Below are positions 2,837 through 63,778 of a stretch of DNA of 64,000 bases, one piece after another. The stretch is from a phage: the sequence record OZ336096.1, one strand, 5' to 3'. Position numbers and translations under genes: made by a program. The notes beneath the pieces were generated by a model that worked only from the letters and a program-made list of their open reading frames with translations, was not told the DNA's origin and did no database searches. Position 1 is the first letter of the stretch, and each line of letters begins with the position of its first letter.

Positions 2837-3011
2837 TCAATGAATCTATGTTTGTAGCTCTAACCTTTTCACGTTCATCGTTAAGATAATCATCAAGAGC
2901 CTTTTCAATCTGTGAATCATCTTGACAGATAACTGTAAAGACTGTAAAGCCGTCTGTATCGTCAATTATCTTACCATAACCGCTTCTGGGATGTAACTTT
3001 TTAAGAGCCAT
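2799..3011 (-). CDS. hypothetical protein
   Basis: 70 aa ORF; overlaps the upstream end of the HTH gene by ~38 nt. Confidence 0.3.
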   Translation of the reverse strand: MALKKLHPRSGYGKIIDDTDGFTVFTVICQDDSQIEKALDDYLNDEREKVRATNIDSLIDASRKRKKKDE

Positions 3012-3012
3012 A

Positions 3013-3396
3013 TTAGATACCTGTACAGCTTCTGTTTTCTAAGAAATACTCAACACCATACATAGCTTTTTGCATCAAATCTTCTTTAAACTGGATACGA
3101 TGATTGAGCATAGCCTGTACATCAATATCATCATGGTGTTTCTCTTTAATATTTGCAGATTGCAGGAAATACTCTGCAAGAACACGATATTGATAGTCAG
3201 TAACCTTATCAGTCATCTCTGTTAAAGACTCTTCAGAGATTGGTTTAAGTAACTCACCATTAGCCAGAGCAACACCTTTTACAATCTGGCAAGTGTCTTC
3301 TGGAACACCTGATAAGTCCACATTTGGAAGTTCTGTTGCATTGACTGGTAAATTCATTGCCATAACCATTGCAGCAGCTAATAAAATCTTTTTCAT
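3013..3396 (-). CDS. secreted/periplasmic protein (hypothetical)
   Basis: 127 aa; N-terminal signal-peptide-like MKKILLAAAMVMAMNLPVNA. Confidence 0.5.
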   Translation of the reverse strand: MKKILLAAAMVMAMNLPVNATELPNVDLSGVPEDTCQIVKGVALANGELLKPISEESLTEMTDKVTDYQYRVLAEYFLQSANIKEKHHDDIDVQAMLNHRIQFKEDLMQKAMYGVEYFLENRSCTGI

Positions 3397-5533: not shown

Positions 5534-5752
5534 TCATAGCAACTCCAGAATATCAATACGTTCACCCTTAAGGACTCCGGTGCGGTCTCTTGCAATCTTA
5601 CCGTCAACGATAAGGATATGCGCGACCTTTAAAGCCTCACGATTAAAACCTTTTAAGAACTTACTAGGCATCACCACAATAAGCATCTCTTGAATCAACT
5701 CTGGAGTATAGCAGTTGTCGTGAAGTTGCTGAATAACGTCTGCAAGTGTCAT
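5534..5752 (-). CDS. hypothetical protein
   Basis: 72 aa ORF. Confidence 0.35.
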   Translation of the reverse strand: MTLADVIQQLHDNCYTPELIQEMLIVVMPSKFLKGFNREALKVAHILIVDGKIARDRTGVLKGERIDILELL

Positions 5753-5803
5753 ATAACCTCCTATATAAGATACAGTATAAGGTACTCTTCCCTGAGCACC
5801 TTG

Positions 5804-58458: not shown

Positions 58459-58487
58459 TTGACAATGTGTTTGATACCCTTTAATAT
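58459..58487 (+). promoter_or_regulatory. sigma70-like promoter upstream of tRNA cluster
   Basis: TTGACA - 17 nt - TAATAT; weaker second candidate at 58550-58578. Confidence 0.45.
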
Positions 58488-58605
58488 GTTCTACATAGAA
58501 ACGAAACGAGAGCTTTTCTAAGATACTGAAAAATATTTTAAAAAAGTTCTTGACAATCACTAAAAAATAATGTTAAAGTGGTTACATAGAGTTTGAAAAG
58601 TTTAT

Positions 58606-58682
58606 CTCTGTTTAGCTCAGCTTGGTAGAGCGTTCCGTTTGGGGCGGTAAGGCCGGAGGTTCAAGTCCTCCAACAGAGACCA
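58606..58682 (+). tRNA. tRNA-Pro (anticodon UGG)
   Basis: 7 bp acceptor CTCTGTT/AACAGAG, D-arm TAGCTCAGCTTGGTAGAGC, T-loop GGTTCAAGTCC, CCA encoded; hand-folded. Confidence 0.6.
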
Positions 58683-58689
58683 AATTAAT

Positions 58690-58767
58690 GTTCCAGTAGA
58701 CAAAACGGTAAAGTCACCACTCTTTCAAAGTGGATATTTGAGGGTTCAAATCCCTTCTGGAACGCCA
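58690..58767 (+). tRNA. tRNA-Glu (UUC)
   Basis: Acceptor GTTCCAG/CTGGAAC, anticodon loop CTTTCAA, T-loop GGTTCAAATCC. Confidence 0.7.
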
Positions 58768-58858
58768 GTTTTGACAGAAGACCAATTGCAGCAAACTTAA
58801 TCTTATTCATCTGACACGAAATCGGACAAAGAAGAGATTTGGTCTGGTCATTAAGAAT

Positions 58859-58935
58859 TGCGGGTATAGAGAAAGGGCGTCTCACATGTCTCATTAGCAT
58901 GGTATCGGCAGGTTCGACTCCTGCACCCGCCTCCA
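58859..58935 (+). tRNA. tRNA-Met (CAU)
   Basis: Anticodon stem CATGT/GCATG, loop CTCATTA, T-loop GGTTCGACTCC; 1-72 mismatch. Confidence 0.55.
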
Positions 58936-59012
58936 ATTTTGCAGAAGACCGTATTCAGCAACAAAATACTTTTTGCGGATAAAAGAAAAAACACGGTCTG
59001 GCAATGTATTAA

Positions 59013-59089
59013 GGTTAGGAAGCACATAAGGTATGTGCGGTCGCCTGTTAAGCGAATGGCACAGGGTTCGAATCCCTGACTAACCGCCA
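59013..59089 (+). tRNA. tRNA-Asn (GUU)
   Basis: Acceptor GGTTAGG, loop CTGTTAA, T-loop GGTTCGAATCC. Confidence 0.65.
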
Positions 59090-59098
59090 AATTTAAAT

Positions 59099-59186
59099 GT
59101 GTCGTTATCCCGTAGATGGTAGCGGTGGGGACTGTAAATCCCTTGTCATTGAGACTCGGTAGGTTCGACTCCTACACGGCACACCA
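59099..59186 (+). tRNA. tRNA-Tyr (GUA), long variable arm
   Basis: Acceptor GTGTCGT/ACGGCAC, loop CTGTAAA, long variable arm, T-loop GGTTCGACTCC. Confidence 0.65.
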
Positions 59187-59192
59187 AATAAA

Positions 59193-59270
59193 GGTTATGT
59201 AGTTTAATCTGGTTAAAATACTCCCCTGTCACGGGAGATGATGAGGGTTCAAATCCCTTCGTAACCGCCA
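59193..59270 (+). tRNA. tRNA-Asp (GUC)
   Basis: Acceptor GGTTATG/CGTAACC, AC stem CTCCC/GGGAG, loop CTGTCAC. Confidence 0.7.
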
Positions 59271-59493
59271 AATTATAATAAGTATTTCAAGATGATGTTT
59301 TGAGAGGGCTATTTAGCCCCTCCCTTAAAGAGTTCTTACGAGTATTCTTTAAAGGAGCAGAAGACCAAATTCAGCAAGTACGTATGATATTTTCAAGCCA
59401 ATTTAATTTTGAAAAATTTAAAACTTGGTCTGGCTCAACAGATTTACAGAAGACCGTTTACAGCAAAACTTAAACAATCTATTTCTCCGGTAA

Positions 59494-59556
59494 AGAAAAG
59501 GCGAAGGTTCGATTCCTTCACTCGGCAGATGTCGAGTTGGTGTAATGGTAGCACTT
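59494..59556 (+). pseudogene. tRNA-like halves in permuted order (3' half then 5' half)
   Basis: GGCGAAGGTTCGATTCCTTCACTCGGCAG (T-arm + 3' acceptor) immediately followed by GTCGAGTTGGTGTAATGGTAGCAC (5' acceptor + D-arm); the two acceptor strands are complementary to each other. Confidence 0.35.
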
Positions 59557-59727
59557 AAGATGATAAACAACGGTCTGGTAATTATCTTTGTAGATAAGTT
59601 ATTAAGCTTACCTGTGAGTATGCGACCACAAAGGGTGAAAGGGTAAATTCTAGATTTAAACCCAACAAGGCACATCGCTACAGACCTTAAGCAAGTCTGG
59701 GTAGCTTATCTACAAAGATAATTTAAT

Positions 59728-59803
59728 GGAAGTGTAGCAGAATGGTGATGCGGCAGACTTTTAATCTGACAGGCGATGGGTTCGAATCCCTCCACTTCTA
59801 CCA
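59728..59803 (+). tRNA. tRNA-Lys (UUU)
   Basis: Acceptor GGAAGTG/CACTTCT, loop CTTTTAA, T-loop GGTTCGAATCC. Confidence 0.6.
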
Positions 59804-59807
59804 ATAT

Positions 59808-59884
59808 GGTTCAGTCGCAGATAAGGTAATGCAGGGGTCTCATAAGCCCTATGAATGTGGGTTCGATTCCCATCTGAACCTCCA
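59808..59884 (+). tRNA. tRNA with CAU anticodon (Met or lysidine-Ile)
   Basis: Acceptor GGTTCAG/CTGAACC, loop CTCATAA, T-loop GGTTCGATTCC. Confidence 0.6.
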
Positions 59885-59885
59885 A

Positions 59886-59961
59886 GCTGGTATAGTTAAG
59901 AAGGTTATAACACTCCCCTGATAAGGGAACATCGGTGGTTCGATTCCACCTACCAGTACCA
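59886..59961 (+). tRNA. tRNA-Ile (GAU)
   Basis: Acceptor GCTGGTA/TACCAGT, loop CTGATAA, T-loop GGTTCGATTCC. Confidence 0.65.
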
Positions 59962-60298
59962 ATTTCAATAAAGTTGTTGACATTGAGATGTGACCACTTT
60001 TTAGTAACTAAAATACTTCATAATATGTATAATTCAAACACCAATACATGAGCGTTAGACGTAACACAATGTGGGGAAATTTGTTGTACATATTCTGAAT
60101 AGTTTTCGTTGCGTAGCGTCTATTTTGCAAATTTAAAATAAATGCAAACGACAATGTTTTTCTGGCAGTAGCTTGATAGGCTAAACACCAGTGAGGTCTT
60201 CCAATCCCTCATCAAAGAATTTGGCGTACTAGCCCACGGTATGATTAATAAAGTGGGCATCTTTAAGGGCTTTCTAAGAGAGTCTTTAAAGATAATTA

Positions 60299-60380
60299 CG
60301 GGGCGTATCTCAGCTGTCTTCTAAACAGCCGTTAACCGAGTAAGTGGAGTATGCGGGTTCGAGTCCTGCCGCCTCGACCA
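60299..60380 (+). tRNA. atypical tRNA-like gene, possibly tRNA-Arg (UCU)
   Basis: Acceptor CGGGGCG/CGCCTCG + ACCA, T-loop GGTTCGAGTCC, perfect anticodon hairpin GCTGT-CTTCTAA-ACAGC, but no recognisable D-arm and a long segment after the anticodon arm. Confidence 0.35.
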
Positions 60381-60523
60381 ATTTAGTTAGCAGATTACTT
60401 AGACGACCTAAGCGGGTCTTCCTGTAGGGAGGTGGTCTGTATCTCATGTTTTCCAGAACATGTAAATAATCTGAGAAGAAGCTTGACAGTGTTGAGATAA
60501 TACGGTAAGCTTCGAATTATAGT

Positions 60524-60606
60524 ATGGGACGATGTTAAGACTCTAAGGCATGAGCAACGGCTTCCAACACCGTTTCAAAGGGGTTCAACTCCTCCGTCCC
60601 ATGCCA
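60524..60606 (+). tRNA. atypical tRNA-like gene, possibly tRNA-Trp (CCA)
   Basis: Acceptor ATGGGAC/GTCCCAT + GCCA, T-loop GGTTCAACTCC; anticodon region AACGG-CTTCCAACA-CCGTT allows a 7 nt loop (CCA) or a 9 nt loop; extra nucleotides in the D region. Confidence 0.4.
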
Positions 60607-60619
60607 AAGTCTTATTAGG

Positions 60620-60709
60620 GGTAGGTAGCGGCTAATGGTAGCCAAACTGTCTTGAAAACAGTTGCCACTGTAGAGATACGGTGAGGGTTCGACTCCTTTA
60701 CTTACCGCC
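60620..60709 (+). tRNA. tRNA-Ser (UGA), long variable arm
   Basis: AC stem ACTGT/ACAGT, loop CTTGAAA, long variable arm, T-loop GGTTCGACTCC; 3' end GCC (CCA not fully encoded). Confidence 0.65.
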
Positions 60710-60862
60710 TAATAAGATTTAAAGCCAAGCTTCATTCGGATGTTGCTTTGGTATCCCTCGTGTTGTCGAACACACTAATAAAGCACCTAGTAGGTGTCAC
60801 GGAGAAGAGATAATATCAAGCTCTCCAAAGGTCCTAGTCACCGGATTAAACAAGACTATGCA

Positions 60863-60884
60863 AAGACCTTTTTAGGTCTTTTTA
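60863..60884 (+). terminator. intrinsic terminator
   Basis: AAGACCTTTTTAGGTCTT hairpin followed by TTT. Confidence 0.5.
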
Positions 60885-60962
60885 GAGGGCTTCTAAGGTT
60901 ATTGCAGCTTGTTGTGGAACCTTGTTGCTTAGGTTCTTAGAAGTTCTCTAAAAAGATTTAAT

Positions 60963-61040
60963 GGGAGATTGACGGTAATTGGTAAACCTACCATCCTTAG
61001 AAGTTGGTGTTTGAGGGTTCGAATCCCTTGTCTCCTACCA
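60963..61040 (+). tRNA. tRNA with UAG anticodon (Leu-type), short variable arm
   Basis: Acceptor GGGAGAT/GTCTCCT, loop CTTAGAA, T-loop GGTTCGAATCC, discriminator A. Confidence 0.5.
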
Positions 61041-61047
61041 AATTAAT

Positions 61048-61123
61048 GCAGGTGTAGCAAAATGGTTATGCGGCTGACTCTTAATCAGTAAGACGATGGG
61101 TTCAATTCCCTCCACCTGTACCA
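61048..61123 (+). tRNA. tRNA-Lys (CUU)
   Basis: Acceptor GCAGGTG/CACCTGT, loop CTCTTAA, T-loop GGTTCAATTCC. Confidence 0.6.
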
Positions 61124-61129
61124 AACATT

Positions 61130-61205
61130 GGGGATGTAGTTTACATGGTTAAAACATAAGTTTTGCAAACTTAAGTACAGGGTTCAATTCCCTGCTTCTC
61201 CACCA
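61130..61205 (+). tRNA. tRNA-Ala (UGC)
   Basis: AC stem TAAGT/ACTTA, loop TTTGCAA, T-loop GGTTCAATTCC. Confidence 0.65.
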
Positions 61206-61211
61206 ATTAGT

Positions 61212-61286
61212 GCATCCATAGTTTAAACGGGAAAATTACAGTCTTCCAAACTGAGGTTGAGGGTTCGATTCCCTCTGGATGCTCCA
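61212..61286 (+). tRNA. tRNA-Gly (UCC)
   Basis: Perfect acceptor GCATCCA/TGGATGC, loop CTTCCAA, T-loop GGTTCGATTCC. Confidence 0.7.
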
Positions 61287-61293
61287 AATTAAT

Positions 61294-61370
61294 GCTGCTT
61301 TCGTATAATTGGCTATTACACATCCCTTGTAAGGATGGAAATGCAGGTTCGAGTCCTGTGAGCAGCACCA
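61294..61370 (+). tRNA. tRNA-Thr (UGU)
   Basis: Acceptor GCTGCTT/GAGCAGC, AC stem CATCC/GGATG, loop CTTGTAA, T-loop GGTTCGAGTCC. Confidence 0.75.
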
Positions 61371-61465
61371 ATTCAGAGGTCAAGTGAAAGACCGCTGGTG
61401 TCAACTGAAGACCGTAACAAATTCCACGGAGTTGAGTTAGCGGCACAACTTCAGACCTCTTCCAT

Positions 61466-61540
61466 ACTCGCTTAGTTTATATGGTAAAACATCACCCTTA
61501 CAAGATGAAGAAAAAGGTTCAAGTCCTTTAGTGAGTACCA
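61466..61540 (+). tRNA. tRNA-Val (UAC)
   Basis: Acceptor ACTCGCT/AGTGAGT, loop CTTACAA, T-loop GGTTCAAGTCC. Confidence 0.65.
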
Positions 61541-61541
61541 T

Positions 61542-61619
61542 GTTCCAGTATCCCAATTGGCAGAGGATGCAAGCTCAAACCTTGTACTAGTGACGGTTCG
61601 AATCCGTCTTGGAACACCA
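61542..61619 (+). tRNA. tRNA with CAA anticodon (Leu-type), short variable arm
   Basis: Acceptor GTTCCAG/TTGGAAC, AC stem GCAAG/CTTGT, loop CTCAAAC, T-loop GGTTCGAATCC, discriminator A. Confidence 0.5.
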
Positions 61620-61638
61620 ATTTTAAGAGGCTATTTAG

Positions 61639-62196
61639 ATGAGATATTTGAAGTATGCTTCATGGATTTTCCTAGCTTTACTAGAACCATTTGCAGCAAC
61701 CCTAGCAGTCATCTTAGCACCTTTCGTAGTTCCATTCTACAGTGAGAAGAAAGGACATCTACCTTTTGGATTCAGATGGATGGAGACCTATGACAACCCG
61801 ATTGATGGTGATGAAGGCCACGTTAAAAGATGGGCTAAGGTTAGAAAGATTGGTAAGCTGGGTGTCTACATGCAGAGAGTTGGATGGCTCTGGAGAAACA
61901 AAGCTTATAACTTCTCTTACCATGTATTAGGAAGAGATGTAAAAGATGTTACTAAGTGGAAAGGTAATATCAACGTAAGTTCTGACCCTGAAGATAATCA
62001 GACTGGTTATCTCCTAATGTGGAACAGTAATGCTTGGGGATTATTCGCTTTTATCCCATCAATTAAAGTCTTTGGTAAACAGTTTTACTGGAGAATTTAT
62101 ATTGGATGGAAACTAAAAAGTGTTGTCCCAGAAGAAAGAGCATTCTCAAGGGGAAGAGTTATGTTGGCATTCTTTATTCATCCACTGAGAAAGTAA
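61639..62196 (+). CDS. hypothetical membrane-anchored protein embedded in the tRNA cluster
   Basis: 185 aa ORF with AAGAGG RBS; N-terminal hydrophobic helix. Confidence 0.5.
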   Translation: MRYLKYASWIFLALLEPFAATLAVILAPFVVPFYSEKKGHLPFGFRWMETYDNPIDGDEGHVKRWAKVRKIGKLGVYMQRVGWLWRNKAYNFSYHVLGRDVKDVTKWKGNINVSSDPEDNQTGYLLMWNSNAWGLFAFIPSIKVFGKQFYWRIYIGWKLKSVVPEERAFSRGRVMLAFFIHPLRK

Positions 62197-62204
62197 AGAT
62201 TTAA

Positions 62205-62280
62205 AGGGGATTAGTTTACAAGGTTAAAACCTCGGTCTTTGAAATCGAAGAAGTTGGTTCAATTCCAACATCCCCCGCCA
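62205..62280 (+). tRNA. tRNA-Gln (UUG)
   Basis: D-stem GTTT/AAAC, AC stem TCGGT/ATCGA, loop CTTTGAA, T-loop GGTTCAATTCC. Confidence 0.6.
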
Positions 62281-62282
62281 AT

Positions 62283-62361
62283 GCTCCATTACTCCAATTG
62301 GCAGAGAGGCCAGACTTAAAATCTGTGTTATGTATCGGTTCGAATCCGATATGGAGTACCA
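62283..62361 (+). tRNA. tRNA with UAA anticodon (Leu-type), short variable arm
   Basis: Acceptor GCTCCAT/ATGGAGT, loop CTTAAAA, T-loop GGTTCGAATCC, discriminator A. Confidence 0.5.
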
Positions 62362-62366
62362 AATTT

Positions 62367-62442
62367 AGCGGTATAGCATAACTGGCAATGCAGCAGTCTC
62401 TGAAGCTGTCCTATTAAGGTTCAAATCCTTATGCCGCTGCCA
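62367..62442 (+). tRNA. tRNA-Gln (CUG)
   Basis: Acceptor AGCGGTA/TGCCGCT, loop CTCTGAA, T-loop GGTTCAAATCC. Confidence 0.6.
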
Positions 62443-62473
62443 CTTCTAAGGTTTCTTACGAGAGTCCTTAAAT

Positions 62474-62549
62474 GTGGCCTTATCATAAATGGTAATGACC
62501 CATGCTGTGAACATGGTCTATACGGGTTCAAATCCCGTAGGTCACCCCA
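62474..62549 (+). tRNA. tRNA-His (GUG)
   Basis: D-stem TCAT/ATGA, AC stem CCATG/CATGG, loop CTGTGAA, T-loop GGTTCAAATCC. Confidence 0.75.
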
Positions 62550-62555
62550 ATTTAT

Positions 62556-62631
62556 AGTCCAAGTGGCTTATATGGTTAAAGCGCGTGTCTGAAAAACATG
62601 AGAAGAGGGTTCAAATCCCACTGGACTACCA
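62556..62631 (+). tRNA. tRNA-Phe (GAA)
   Basis: Acceptor TAGTCCA/TGGACTA, loop CTGAAAA, T-loop GGTTCAAATCC. Confidence 0.6.
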
Positions 62632-62647
62632 ATTTCAAAGGTGCTTA

Positions 62648-63382
62648 ATGAAAGAGATGACAGAACAAGGTAAGGAGATTTTTAATCTCTTAAAAACCGG
62701 TAAAGGGTTTTCTAATCCCCTTATTACTGGTGCAGCAGTTCTAGGTGGAACCGTGGCTGCCTCTACATCACTTGTAAGCTCTATTAGCTCTGTAACAGAC
62801 CCTACAATGAAGGATAAACTTGTTGCTGCTGGACTTACAACAGTCCTTCTAAACAGCTTTACAACAAGCCTGACAAGCACTACAGCAACTACTAAGACCC
62901 TAACAGACTATGGTCAAAAATCTATTGATGAGTTTTCATCACGTATGCAGGTAGCAAAGGGATACTCCAATGTTATGGGTGCAGCAGGAGAACAAGTTGG
63001 TTGTACACCATTCAGTGGTATTATGGGTGTTGCTACAGAGTATGGTCAAAAAGCTATTGACATGATGAACAGTACACTAGATAGTGTTAATGGTGTGTTA
63101 AGTGACTTACAGGACGCTATTGACAAGGGTCTTGATACTGTTTCTGATTTAGCTAACCAAGCTGTCAGTAAGATTAATGAAGGTATCTCAAAGATTACAG
63201 CTTATGCAGATGAAGTTGTGCAGATGATTGAAGAAGAGGCTGCCCTTATTGCAGAGTACCTTAAAACGAATATCAATGGGTTCTTAGCAGGTATCTTACC
63301 AGACTGGTTTGATGATGCTTGTAAAACTGGTGTAATTGACACTATTGCAACACCAGAAATGAAGAACGCATTACAGAAATAA
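62648..63382 (+). CDS. hypothetical Ser/Thr-rich protein embedded in the tRNA cluster
   Basis: ORF 62585-63382 trimmed to ATG 62648 so it no longer overlaps tRNA-Phe; hydrophobic segment ITGAAVLGGTVAAS; stop abuts tRNA-Ser. Confidence 0.45.
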   Translation: MKEMTEQGKEIFNLLKTGKGFSNPLITGAAVLGGTVAASTSLVSSISSVTDPTMKDKLVAAGLTTVLLNSFTTSLTSTTATTKTLTDYGQKSIDEFSSRMQVAKGYSNVMGAAGEQVGCTPFSGIMGVATEYGQKAIDMMNSTLDSVNGVLSDLQDAIDKGLDTVSDLANQAVSKINEGISKITAYADEVVQMIEEEAALIAEYLKTNINGFLAGILPDWFDDACKTGVIDTIATPEMKNALQK

Positions 63383-63383
63383 T

Positions 63384-63476
63384 GGAAGATTAACCCTAAA
63401 AGGTAAGGGAGCAGTTTGCTAAACTGCCAGTAGCTGAGAAATCGGTGTACCAGTTCAAGTCTGGTATCTTCCTCCA
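63384..63476 (+). tRNA. tRNA-Ser (GCU), long variable arm
   Basis: Perfect acceptor GGAAGAT/ATCTTCC, AC stem GCAGT/ACTGC, loop TTGCTAA, long variable arm, T-loop AGTTCAAGTCT. Confidence 0.8.
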
Positions 63477-63480
63477 ATTT

Positions 63481-63555
63481 GAATCCGTGACAGAAATGGA
63501 TATGTGCCTGTCTGCAAAACAGGTTTATAAGGGTTCGAGTCCCTTCGGATTCTCC
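63481..63555 (+). tRNA. tRNA-Cys (GCA)
   Basis: Perfect acceptor GAATCCG/CGGATTC, AC stem CCTGT/ACAGG, loop CTGCAAA, T-loop GGTTCGAGTCC. Confidence 0.8.
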
Positions 63556-63593
63556 AAGTTATTTTACTCTCTCTCAATTAAAATAATAATAAT

Positions 63594-63654: not shown

Positions 63655-63778
63655 CAGAGTTATACTTTATAGGAAGACTTATACAGTATGTCTCTGACGT
63701 ACATTGTGGTTTCTCCTTGACGGTCTCTGTGCCGTCTTTTTTAAGGGGAAACAATATTAATTATTTGGAGAAAACATA

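Follow-up and report, generated by a model that had tools for sequence, protein, structure and literature searches.

Three type I tRNALeu genes in a phage tRNA cluster and their short-armed relatives in phages and bacteria

The 64,000-nucleotide stretch of phage DNA in sequence record OZ336096.1, referred to below as the window, carries on its plus strand a cluster of 24 tRNA genes (58606–63556), three of which combine a leucine anticodon with a short variable loop. The genes were called with ARAGORN and checked independently with the Rfam tRNA covariance model above its gathering score, and the cluster as a whole was confirmed by a general Rfam scan. The three genes, all of type I shape and on the plus strand, are tRNA-Leu(UAG) at 60963–61040 (78 nt; 40.0 bits on the Rfam tRNA model), tRNA-Leu(CAA) at 61542–61619 (78 nt; 43.6 bits) and tRNA-Leu(UAA) at 62283–62361 (79 nt; 47.5 bits), with E-values of 1e-6 to 1e-8; the lengths include the CCA end, which is encoded in all three. 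All 24 tRNAs were split into standard segments and assembled in a feature table, in which the variable region comprises positions 44–48. This region is UGUUU (5 nt, 61008–61012) in Leu(UAG), ACUAGU (6 nt, 61586–61591) in Leu(CAA) and GUUAUGU (7 nt, 62327–62333) in Leu(UAA). None of the three contains a stem, and the long arm of class II tRNAs, with more than 10 nt and a stem, is absent; a Leu anticodon together with a helix-free variable loop of at least 5 nt places all three genes in the type I tRNALeu class. The coordinates, anticodons and short arms given in an earlier, sequence-only reading of this DNA are confirmed by ARAGORN and Rfam. The long arms which it ascribed to the Ser and Tyr genes of the same cluster are found as well: the variable arm measures 15 nt and includes a stem in tRNA-Tyr(GUA) (59099–59186), and is 20 and 22 nt long, again with a stem, in tRNA-Ser(UGA) (60620–60709) and tRNA-Ser(GCU) (63384–63476), respectively, all three lying on the plus strand and serving here as class II comparators. 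Bacterial tyrosyl-tRNA synthetase (TyrRS) also contacts the variable arm. Serine identity rests primarily on the long arm (PMC9976931), which is why the Ser tRNAs keep it.

The anticodons are located at 60998–61000 (UAG), 61576–61578 (CAA) and 62317–62319 (UAA), within the loops CUUAGAA, CUCAAAC and CUUAAAA, each of 7 nt with U33 and five flanking stem pairs, and ARAGORN and the Rfam model agree on this register. With the register confirmed, the genes are not suppressors; none of the anticodons is complementary to UAA, UAG or UGA, and all three read Leu codons. A G1.U72 pair is present in Leu(UAG) and Leu(UAA). In Leu(UAG) three nucleotides (UGA) separate the acceptor and D stems, i.e., one extra after position 9, and position 37 is A, whereas the CUN-reading tRNALeu genes of E. 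coli have G37. The Rfam alignment of Leu(UAG) slides the acceptor stem by one to absorb the extra nucleotide. In the ARAGORN register seven acceptor pairs are followed by A73-CCA, which agrees with the insertion-free homologue from T5-like phages, and this register is taken here as the correct one.

An alternative raised by the sequence-only reading, that leucine identity in these tRNAs relies on elements other than the arm, is supported by their sequences, which keep all non-arm elements used by the E. coli leucyl-tRNA synthetase (LeuRS). The five tRNALeu isoacceptors of E. coli K-12, taken from the reference genome (leuZ UAA, leuX CAA, leuW UAG, leuU GAG and leuT CAG), share with the three phage genes A73, U8/A14, A15 with U48, the position of G18G19, and A20a; the A at the discriminator position had already been noticed in the earlier reading. 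The G18G19 pair of the phage genes is preceded by four nucleotides (14–17) and followed by three, including A20a, and the D regions UAUCCCAAUUGGCAGAGGA, UACUCCAAUUGGCAGAGAG and UGACGGUAAUUGGUAAACCU can be compared with UGGUGGAAUCGGUAGACAC of E. coli. The bases of the A15-U48 Levitt pair are present in all three genes and are expected to pair. The T loop is UUCGAAU throughout and can form the G18-U55, G19-C56 and U54-A58 contacts. Leu(CAA) and Leu(UAA) possess the 3-bp D stem and 11-nt D loop (CAAUUGGCAGA) of the tRNALeu type, the E. coli loop being GAAUYGGUAGA. Further likenesses to the E. coli genes are the G1.U72 pair, present in some of these, and the anticodons, all of which also occur in the host; the E. 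coli tRNAs differ in their length of 85–87 nt and their variable arms of 13–15 nt with a stem. Among the 24 cluster tRNAs in the feature table the full Leu combination is confined to the three Leu genes, the nearest other tRNA being Thr(UGU), but with U20a. E. coli tRNALeu is reported to need A73, with the anticodon and long arm dispensable (PMC9976931), and E. coli LeuRS further requires the A15-U48 Levitt pair, G18G19 and A20a (PMC9976931; PMC2377443). Sequence and folding of the long arm are uncorrelated with leucylation, and armless variants stay active (PMC9976931; PMC2377443) on condition that A73 and the D/T-loop contacts are intact (PMC9976931).

At 60500–62800 the window shows 97–98.5% identity to a large number of Felix O1-like phages infecting Escherichia, Salmonella, Shigella and Citrobacter, with 258 matching phage records, and the region is 95–99% identical in 178 phage records; judged by these matches, the window comes from a Felixounavirus (Felix O1-like, about 86 kb), a phage of E. 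coli/Salmonella. More than 250 phage genomes retain the Leu genes, whose stems show compensatory changes. In 216 of the 264 phage records that match Leu(UAA), the identity is 99% or higher. Leu(UAG) exists as two alleles in Felixounavirus, with the anticodon stem ACCAUC/GUUGGU in the window and AUCUCG/CGAGAU in phages EC6 and FO1a; four pairs are altered on both sides or repaired, and the loop and the remainder of the gene are constant. An identical Leu(UAG) gene is found in Citrobacter phage Mordin, and homologues of Leu(CAA) are present in Mordin and in Erwinia phage Tian. Short Leu genes of 77–79 nt occur in Mooglevirus (Mordin), Kolesnikvirus (Tian) and Pectobacterium phage Arno18, with quite different, fully paired acceptor stems, and in the same three phages the Ser (90–93 nt) and Tyr (83–89 nt) genes retain an extended variable region. 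Homologues are known from four Ounavirinae lineages and from T5-like phages, and their divergent acceptor stems still pair. Alignment with homologues from related phages, which the sequence-only reading had proposed as a check, shows that the Leu anticodons recur across several phage genera. A reading of the three genes as pseudogenes was considered and rejected in view of the intact cloverleaf, the conservation, the compensatory changes and the invariant identity nucleotides.

The T5-like phages (Tequintavirus) belong to an unrelated family (Demerecviridae). Their Leu(UAG) and Leu(UAA) genes are 77 nt long and short-armed, with A73, an encoded CCA and the variable loop GUUUU. The T5-like Leu(UAG) is about 84% identical to that of the window and differs in having no extra nucleotide before the D stem; no Leu(CAA) gene is present in the T5-like region retrieved. 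The likeness of Leu(UAG) across unrelated families points to a tRNA gene that either spread horizontally or was inherited from a common ancestor. Annotation pipelines mislabel short-armed Leu genes. In the records of Salmonella phage DaR-2019a and Phage NBSal004 only two tRNA-Leu features are annotated in the stretch, together with two labelled 'tRNA-OTHER'. A short-armed tRNA-Leu(AAG) is encoded by Tian (5693–5770 of the retrieved stretch), and the AAG anticodon also occurs in 8 viral short-armed Leu genes among the matches listed in the pattern search described below; A34 is unusual in bacterial systems outside tRNA-Arg(ACG).

A search pattern combining a D loop of the Leu type with a Leu anticodon loop, a variable region of 4–7 nt and a T loop matched at least 120 stretches in IMG/VR viral contigs. 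When variable regions of 4–22 nt were allowed in that scanned portion, a short form was present in 30 stretches, and 90 had long forms only; these and the following viral counts all refer to the matches listed. The lengths of the variable region are distributed bimodally, 5 nt being by far the commonest, followed by 6–7 nt, with a second group at 11–18 nt. Short forms make up about a quarter of the sampled viral Leu-type matches, and of the stretches with at least five tRNAs 24 of 63 (38%) hold one. In 120 viral loci containing short forms, the Leu genes called by ARAGORN are short in 176 and long in 53 cases, and in the same loci the long arm is present in 96 of 97 Ser and in all 43 Tyr genes. 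All 163 distinct viral short-armed Leu tRNAs have A73 and U48, neither of which is part of the search pattern; in this set G1.U72 is frequent, and every stem pair is represented by 2–6 compensating pair types. Short Leu genes are also found in a Seunavirus and in an Aeromonas Demerecviridae phage. The Xanthomonas jumbo phage X1 encodes a long-armed tRNA-Leu(UAG) of 86 nt (2208–2293 of the retrieved stretch) and a short-armed tRNA-Leu(CAG) of 77 nt (2994–3070) only about 700 nt apart, so that both types coexist in one tRNA cluster. In the Lactobacillus Herelleviridae phage LpeD (NC_048677.1, 134103–140158) three short-armed Leu genes are found among 15 tRNA genes called by ARAGORN. The LpeD record annotates no tRNA in this interval, and for two of its Leu genes the prediction shows an acceptor stem of 8 bp and no encoded CCA. 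The short-armed tRNALeu shape is common in phages.

The same pattern gave at least 120 matches in bacterial and archaeal contigs representing one genome per species. Most of the cellular matches listed are solitary chromosomal tRNA-Leu(UAA) or tRNA-Leu(CAA) genes of Actinomycetota, including Nocardia, Rhodococcus, Mycobacterium, Corynebacterium, Gordonia, Arthrobacter, Bifidobacterium and Rothia, and at 91 of the 120 loci among these matches no other tRNA lies within 8 kb; in some metagenome-assembled genomes the short Leu genes are located in dense tRNA arrays. Within the same listed matches A73 is present in 122 of 122 and U48 in 121 of 122 cellular short-armed Leu genes. The solitary genes of Actinomycetota have a nearly constant D arm, UAGCCCAAUUGGCAGAGGC, and in many members of the phylum the short form is native and present in a single copy. 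These results suggest that type I tRNALeu is the norm for the UAA and CAA isoacceptors across much of Actinomycetota, beyond Streptomyces coelicolor.

With regard to the origin of the phage genes, a blastn search of 5,426 complete E. coli genomes with the three window genes as queries gave no match, and outside the variable region the identity of Leu(CAA) and Leu(UAA) to the E. coli tRNALeu genes is low, at 38–53%. A recent capture from the host was therefore rejected. Short and long Leu genes are interleaved in their similarity: with the variable region set aside, the identity of cross-class pairs reaches 80–86%, and for 21 of 44 long-armed Leu tRNAs the nearest neighbour is short-armed. A single ancient short-armed lineage is thus not supported, and the interleaving argues for repeated loss or gain of the arm instead.

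Taken together, the three genes are probably working leucine tRNAs of the phage, built on a type I scaffold and charged by the LeuRS of the host. From their sequence features we infer charging by the host enzyme, leucine as the amino acid, and a role in codon supply. The cluster of 24 genes would probably be transcribed together and processed by host enzymes, the CCA end being already encoded, after which the host LeuRS would load leucine on the three tRNAs. On this explanation the enterobacterial LeuRS ignores both the anticodon and the arm and reads A73 together with the form of the elbow and hinge, as determined by U8-A14, A15-U48, G18G19 and A20a. Selection by LeuRS on these tRNAs is indicated by the retention of the full E. 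coli identity set and by the conservation of A73 and U48 in hundreds of short-armed genes. Of 50,697 phage records searched by tblastn with E. coli LeuRS, 61 gave matches, and these, by organism name and record length, look like host-derived fragments and very large or Gram-positive phages; neither Felixounavirus nor Tequintavirus is among their organism names, and for this reason charging would have to be carried out by the host enzyme. Once charged, the tRNAs would decode UUA, UUG and CUA (plus CUG); at least half of the Leu codons of this phage, which has 39% G+C, are of these kinds. In 53 long open reading frames (ORFs) of the window, UUA accounts for 24.3%, UUG for 14.8%, CUA for 10.8% and CUG for 16.5% of the Leu codons. 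E. coli strongly prefers CUG.

The closest precedent is the type I tRNALeu(CAA) of S. coelicolor, with the variable loop ACAGC (Fan et al. 2019, PMC6614811). Streptomyces LeuRS charges both tRNALeu types by means of a specialised leucine-specific domain; a minimum of 5 variable nucleotides, including position 48, is required, and A14-U8 is important (PMC6614811). The same paper describes bacterial tRNALeu as almost entirely type II and E. coli LeuRS as charging type II tRNALeu only. The phage and Streptomyces cases are alike in that a bacterial tRNALeu with a 5-nt loop is found alongside long-armed tRNALeu with a single LeuRS. They differ in that the Streptomyces tRNA is the product of a chromosomal housekeeping gene, has C48 and makes no use of A73, whereas the phage tRNAs have U48 and A73 and must work with the enterobacterial LeuRS, an enzyme which failed on the Streptomyces tRNA. 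In animal mitochondria tRNALeu also has a short variable loop and an identity based on A73 and A14 (PMC9976931), but these structurally relaxed tRNAs are served by their own organellar LeuRS. Leu and Ser tRNAs have been described as long-armed everywhere save in animal mitochondria (PMC9976931); the short Leu genes of phages and Actinomycetota contradict this. As summarised in PMC9976931, engineered E. coli tRNALeu without the arm is still leucylated by E. coli LeuRS if A73 and the D/T contacts are present (Larkin et al. 2002; Asahara et al. 1998). Those are laboratory constructs, and the phage genes, as far as that summary goes, follow the same logic in a natural and conserved form.

Several observations weigh against working leucine tRNAs. 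The anticodon stem of Leu(UAG) includes one U.U mismatch, and an extra nucleotide precedes the D stem of the same gene; in Leu(CAA) and Leu(UAA) the variable region, at 6 and 7 nt, exceeds the canonical 5. Pairing is a condition for a call by ARAGORN, so that the percentages of paired positions in gene sets selected with it are biased upward, a bias that does not affect the invariance of A73 and U48. The remaining points may also be read as signs that the tRNAs are expressed but charged poorly, or not at all, by the enterobacterial LeuRS, and that they are relics or have another use, for example as decoys for tRNA-directed nucleases or toxins of the host. E. coli LeuRS failed to leucylate the natural type I tRNALeu(CAA) of S. 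coelicolor (PMC6614811), the three Leu genes score lowest of the neighbourhood tRNAs on the general tRNA model, and a T5-like homologue of Leu(UAG) is annotated as 'tRNA-Pseudo-TAG' (Yersinia phage phiR2-01, NC_019919.2, 31489–31561). Some defence nucleases cleave a class II tRNA within its variable loop, as illustrated by the action of Septu and Retron-Eco7 on tRNATyr (PMC13096335). However, the conservation of A73 and U48 in the viral and cellular genes listed is hard to explain without recognition by LeuRS, the anticodons are conserved, and the anticodon stems vary solely by compensation. Moreover, the anticodons fit codons which are abundant in the phage and rare in the host, and the armless E. 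coli tRNALeu variants were reported to be active (PMC9976931). Poor or absent charging is accordingly regarded as improbable. The rejection of the Streptomyces tRNA by the E. coli enzyme may be explained by its C48, by which the A15-U48 pair would be broken and in which it differs from the U48 of the phage genes.

Much less probable still is that the three genes encode class I tRNAs of another identity that have acquired Leu anticodons and are charged by a different synthetase, which would lead to recoding or mistranslation of Leu codons. A class I shape is indeed unexpected for leucine, and Leu(CAA) and the phage tRNA-Glu have the same 5' strand, GUUCCAG, in their acceptor stems. Yet the D arm, with its 3-bp stem and 11-nt loop NAAUUGGYAKA, is of the tRNALeu type and unlike those of the other 21 cluster tRNAs. 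The G3.U70 pair recognised by AlaRS and the long arm recognised by SerRS are both absent and, to judge by published identity rules, the synthetases for Phe, Val, Thr, Ile, Met and Tyr would not find in these anticodons the nucleotides they need. The identity of up to 86% between short and long Leu tRNAs outside the variable region argues that the short ones derive from ordinary tRNALeu. Finally, the possibility entertained in the sequence-only reading that the anticodon loop is mis-parsed, hiding UUA or UCA stop suppressors or a long arm, can be practically dismissed, as ARAGORN and Rfam place identical 7-nt loops, each holding U33 and flanked by five pairs, the covariance-model fold reveals no long arm, 78–79 nt including CCA leave no space for one, and the anticodons recur across phage genera.

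The simplest reading of the short arm of these probable leucine tRNAs is its loss by neutral streamlining. An adaptive loss, in which phages have repeatedly stripped the arm and thereby gained a tRNALeu that can be charged by the LeuRS of many hosts, including E. coli, and that goes unseen by nucleases or toxins acting on class II arms, is conceivable but rather unlikely. The argument for it is that leucine is the sole class II identity whose bacterial synthetase needs no arm. The recurrence in unrelated families of phages, the cross-class pairs of 80–86% identity and the enrichment in tRNA clusters fit adaptive loss, and fit neutral streamlining equally well. Septu and Retron-Eco7 are defence nucleases directed at the variable loop of class II tRNATyr (PMC13096335). 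Protection from arm nucleases is rated low, because we know of no defence that targets the arm of tRNALeu.

The remaining features of the cluster are the following. Upstream lie promoter-like sites at 58459–58487 and 58550–58579, and downstream a terminator-like hairpin at 63719–63736, all of which are consensus matches only. In tRNA-Ser(GCU) the discriminator is U73, not the usual bacterial G73, and three nucleotides separate the acceptor and D stems, as in tRNA-Leu(UAG). A near-perfect 27-bp hairpin is located at about 60870–60961 on the plus strand, directly 5' of tRNA-Leu(UAG), with a smaller hairpin at about 60863–60885; it is preceded by the terminator-like sequence AAAGACC-UUUUU-AGGUCUUUUU, and the 253-nt spacer in which it lies has a folding z-score of -4.0. 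The hairpin may act within the tRNA cluster either in processing (RNase III-type) or as a terminator. Between tRNA-Leu(CAA) and tRNA-Gln an ORF of 185 aa (61639–62196, plus strand) encodes a DUF7338/phrog_2143 protein of unknown function, and at the DNA level it shares about 70% identity with hypothetical genes from T4-like phages of Klebsiella, Enterobacter and Cronobacter; a link of this ORF to tRNA charging was considered, but DUF7338 provides none. No tRNA-Arg or tRNA-Trp is found in the window. Mordin has a tRNA-Arg in the Ile-Ser interval, and Arno18 and Tian have Arg genes elsewhere in their clusters. The Ile-Ser interval of the window (59962–60619) contains weak tRNA-like signals at 60298–60377 (23 bits on the Rfam tRNA-Sec model) and at about 60542–60593 (locally similar to the Mordin tRNA-Arg), which suggest a decayed gene. 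A partial tRNA-like remnant at 59470–59520 scores 22 bits on the Rfam tRNA model, covers model positions 7–64 only and is not called by ARAGORN; its T-arm sequence doubles as a terminator-like match on the minus strand.

In the literature searched, short-armed tRNALeu in phages, in Felixounavirus or in T5 is not described, although the T5 tRNA papers of the 1980s were not covered and an older description is possible, and the phrase 'type I tRNALeu' was found in no paper besides PMC6614811. A short-looped tRNALeu(UAG) is mentioned in passing for a mycobacterial tRNA array (Behra et al. 2019, PMC6582537), and a paper from 2024 (PMC11541572) implies that only three of the five tRNALeu of M. tuberculosis are long-looped. 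Short-armed tRNALeu thus appears to be a known but little-noticed kind of tRNA, whose presence in enterobacterial phages appears to be undescribed, and the only bacterial exception studied biochemically is a single Streptomyces tRNA. For annotators the findings are a warning, as some pipelines label short-armed Leu genes 'pseudo' or 'OTHER', and for tRNA engineering these genes offer compact natural leucine tRNA scaffolds. They correct a textbook generalisation and do not reveal a new mechanism. Conserved short-armed Leu tRNAs are present in classical enterobacterial phages, the Felix O1-like phages and, by homology, the T5-like phages, and these genes constitute a natural test of the requirements of E. 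coli LeuRS, which is a testable question because this enzyme has been reported to accept only long-armed tRNALeu. If the adaptive reading of arm loss is true, E. coli LeuRS would charge short-armed tRNALeu, contrary to the published view that it charges type II only.

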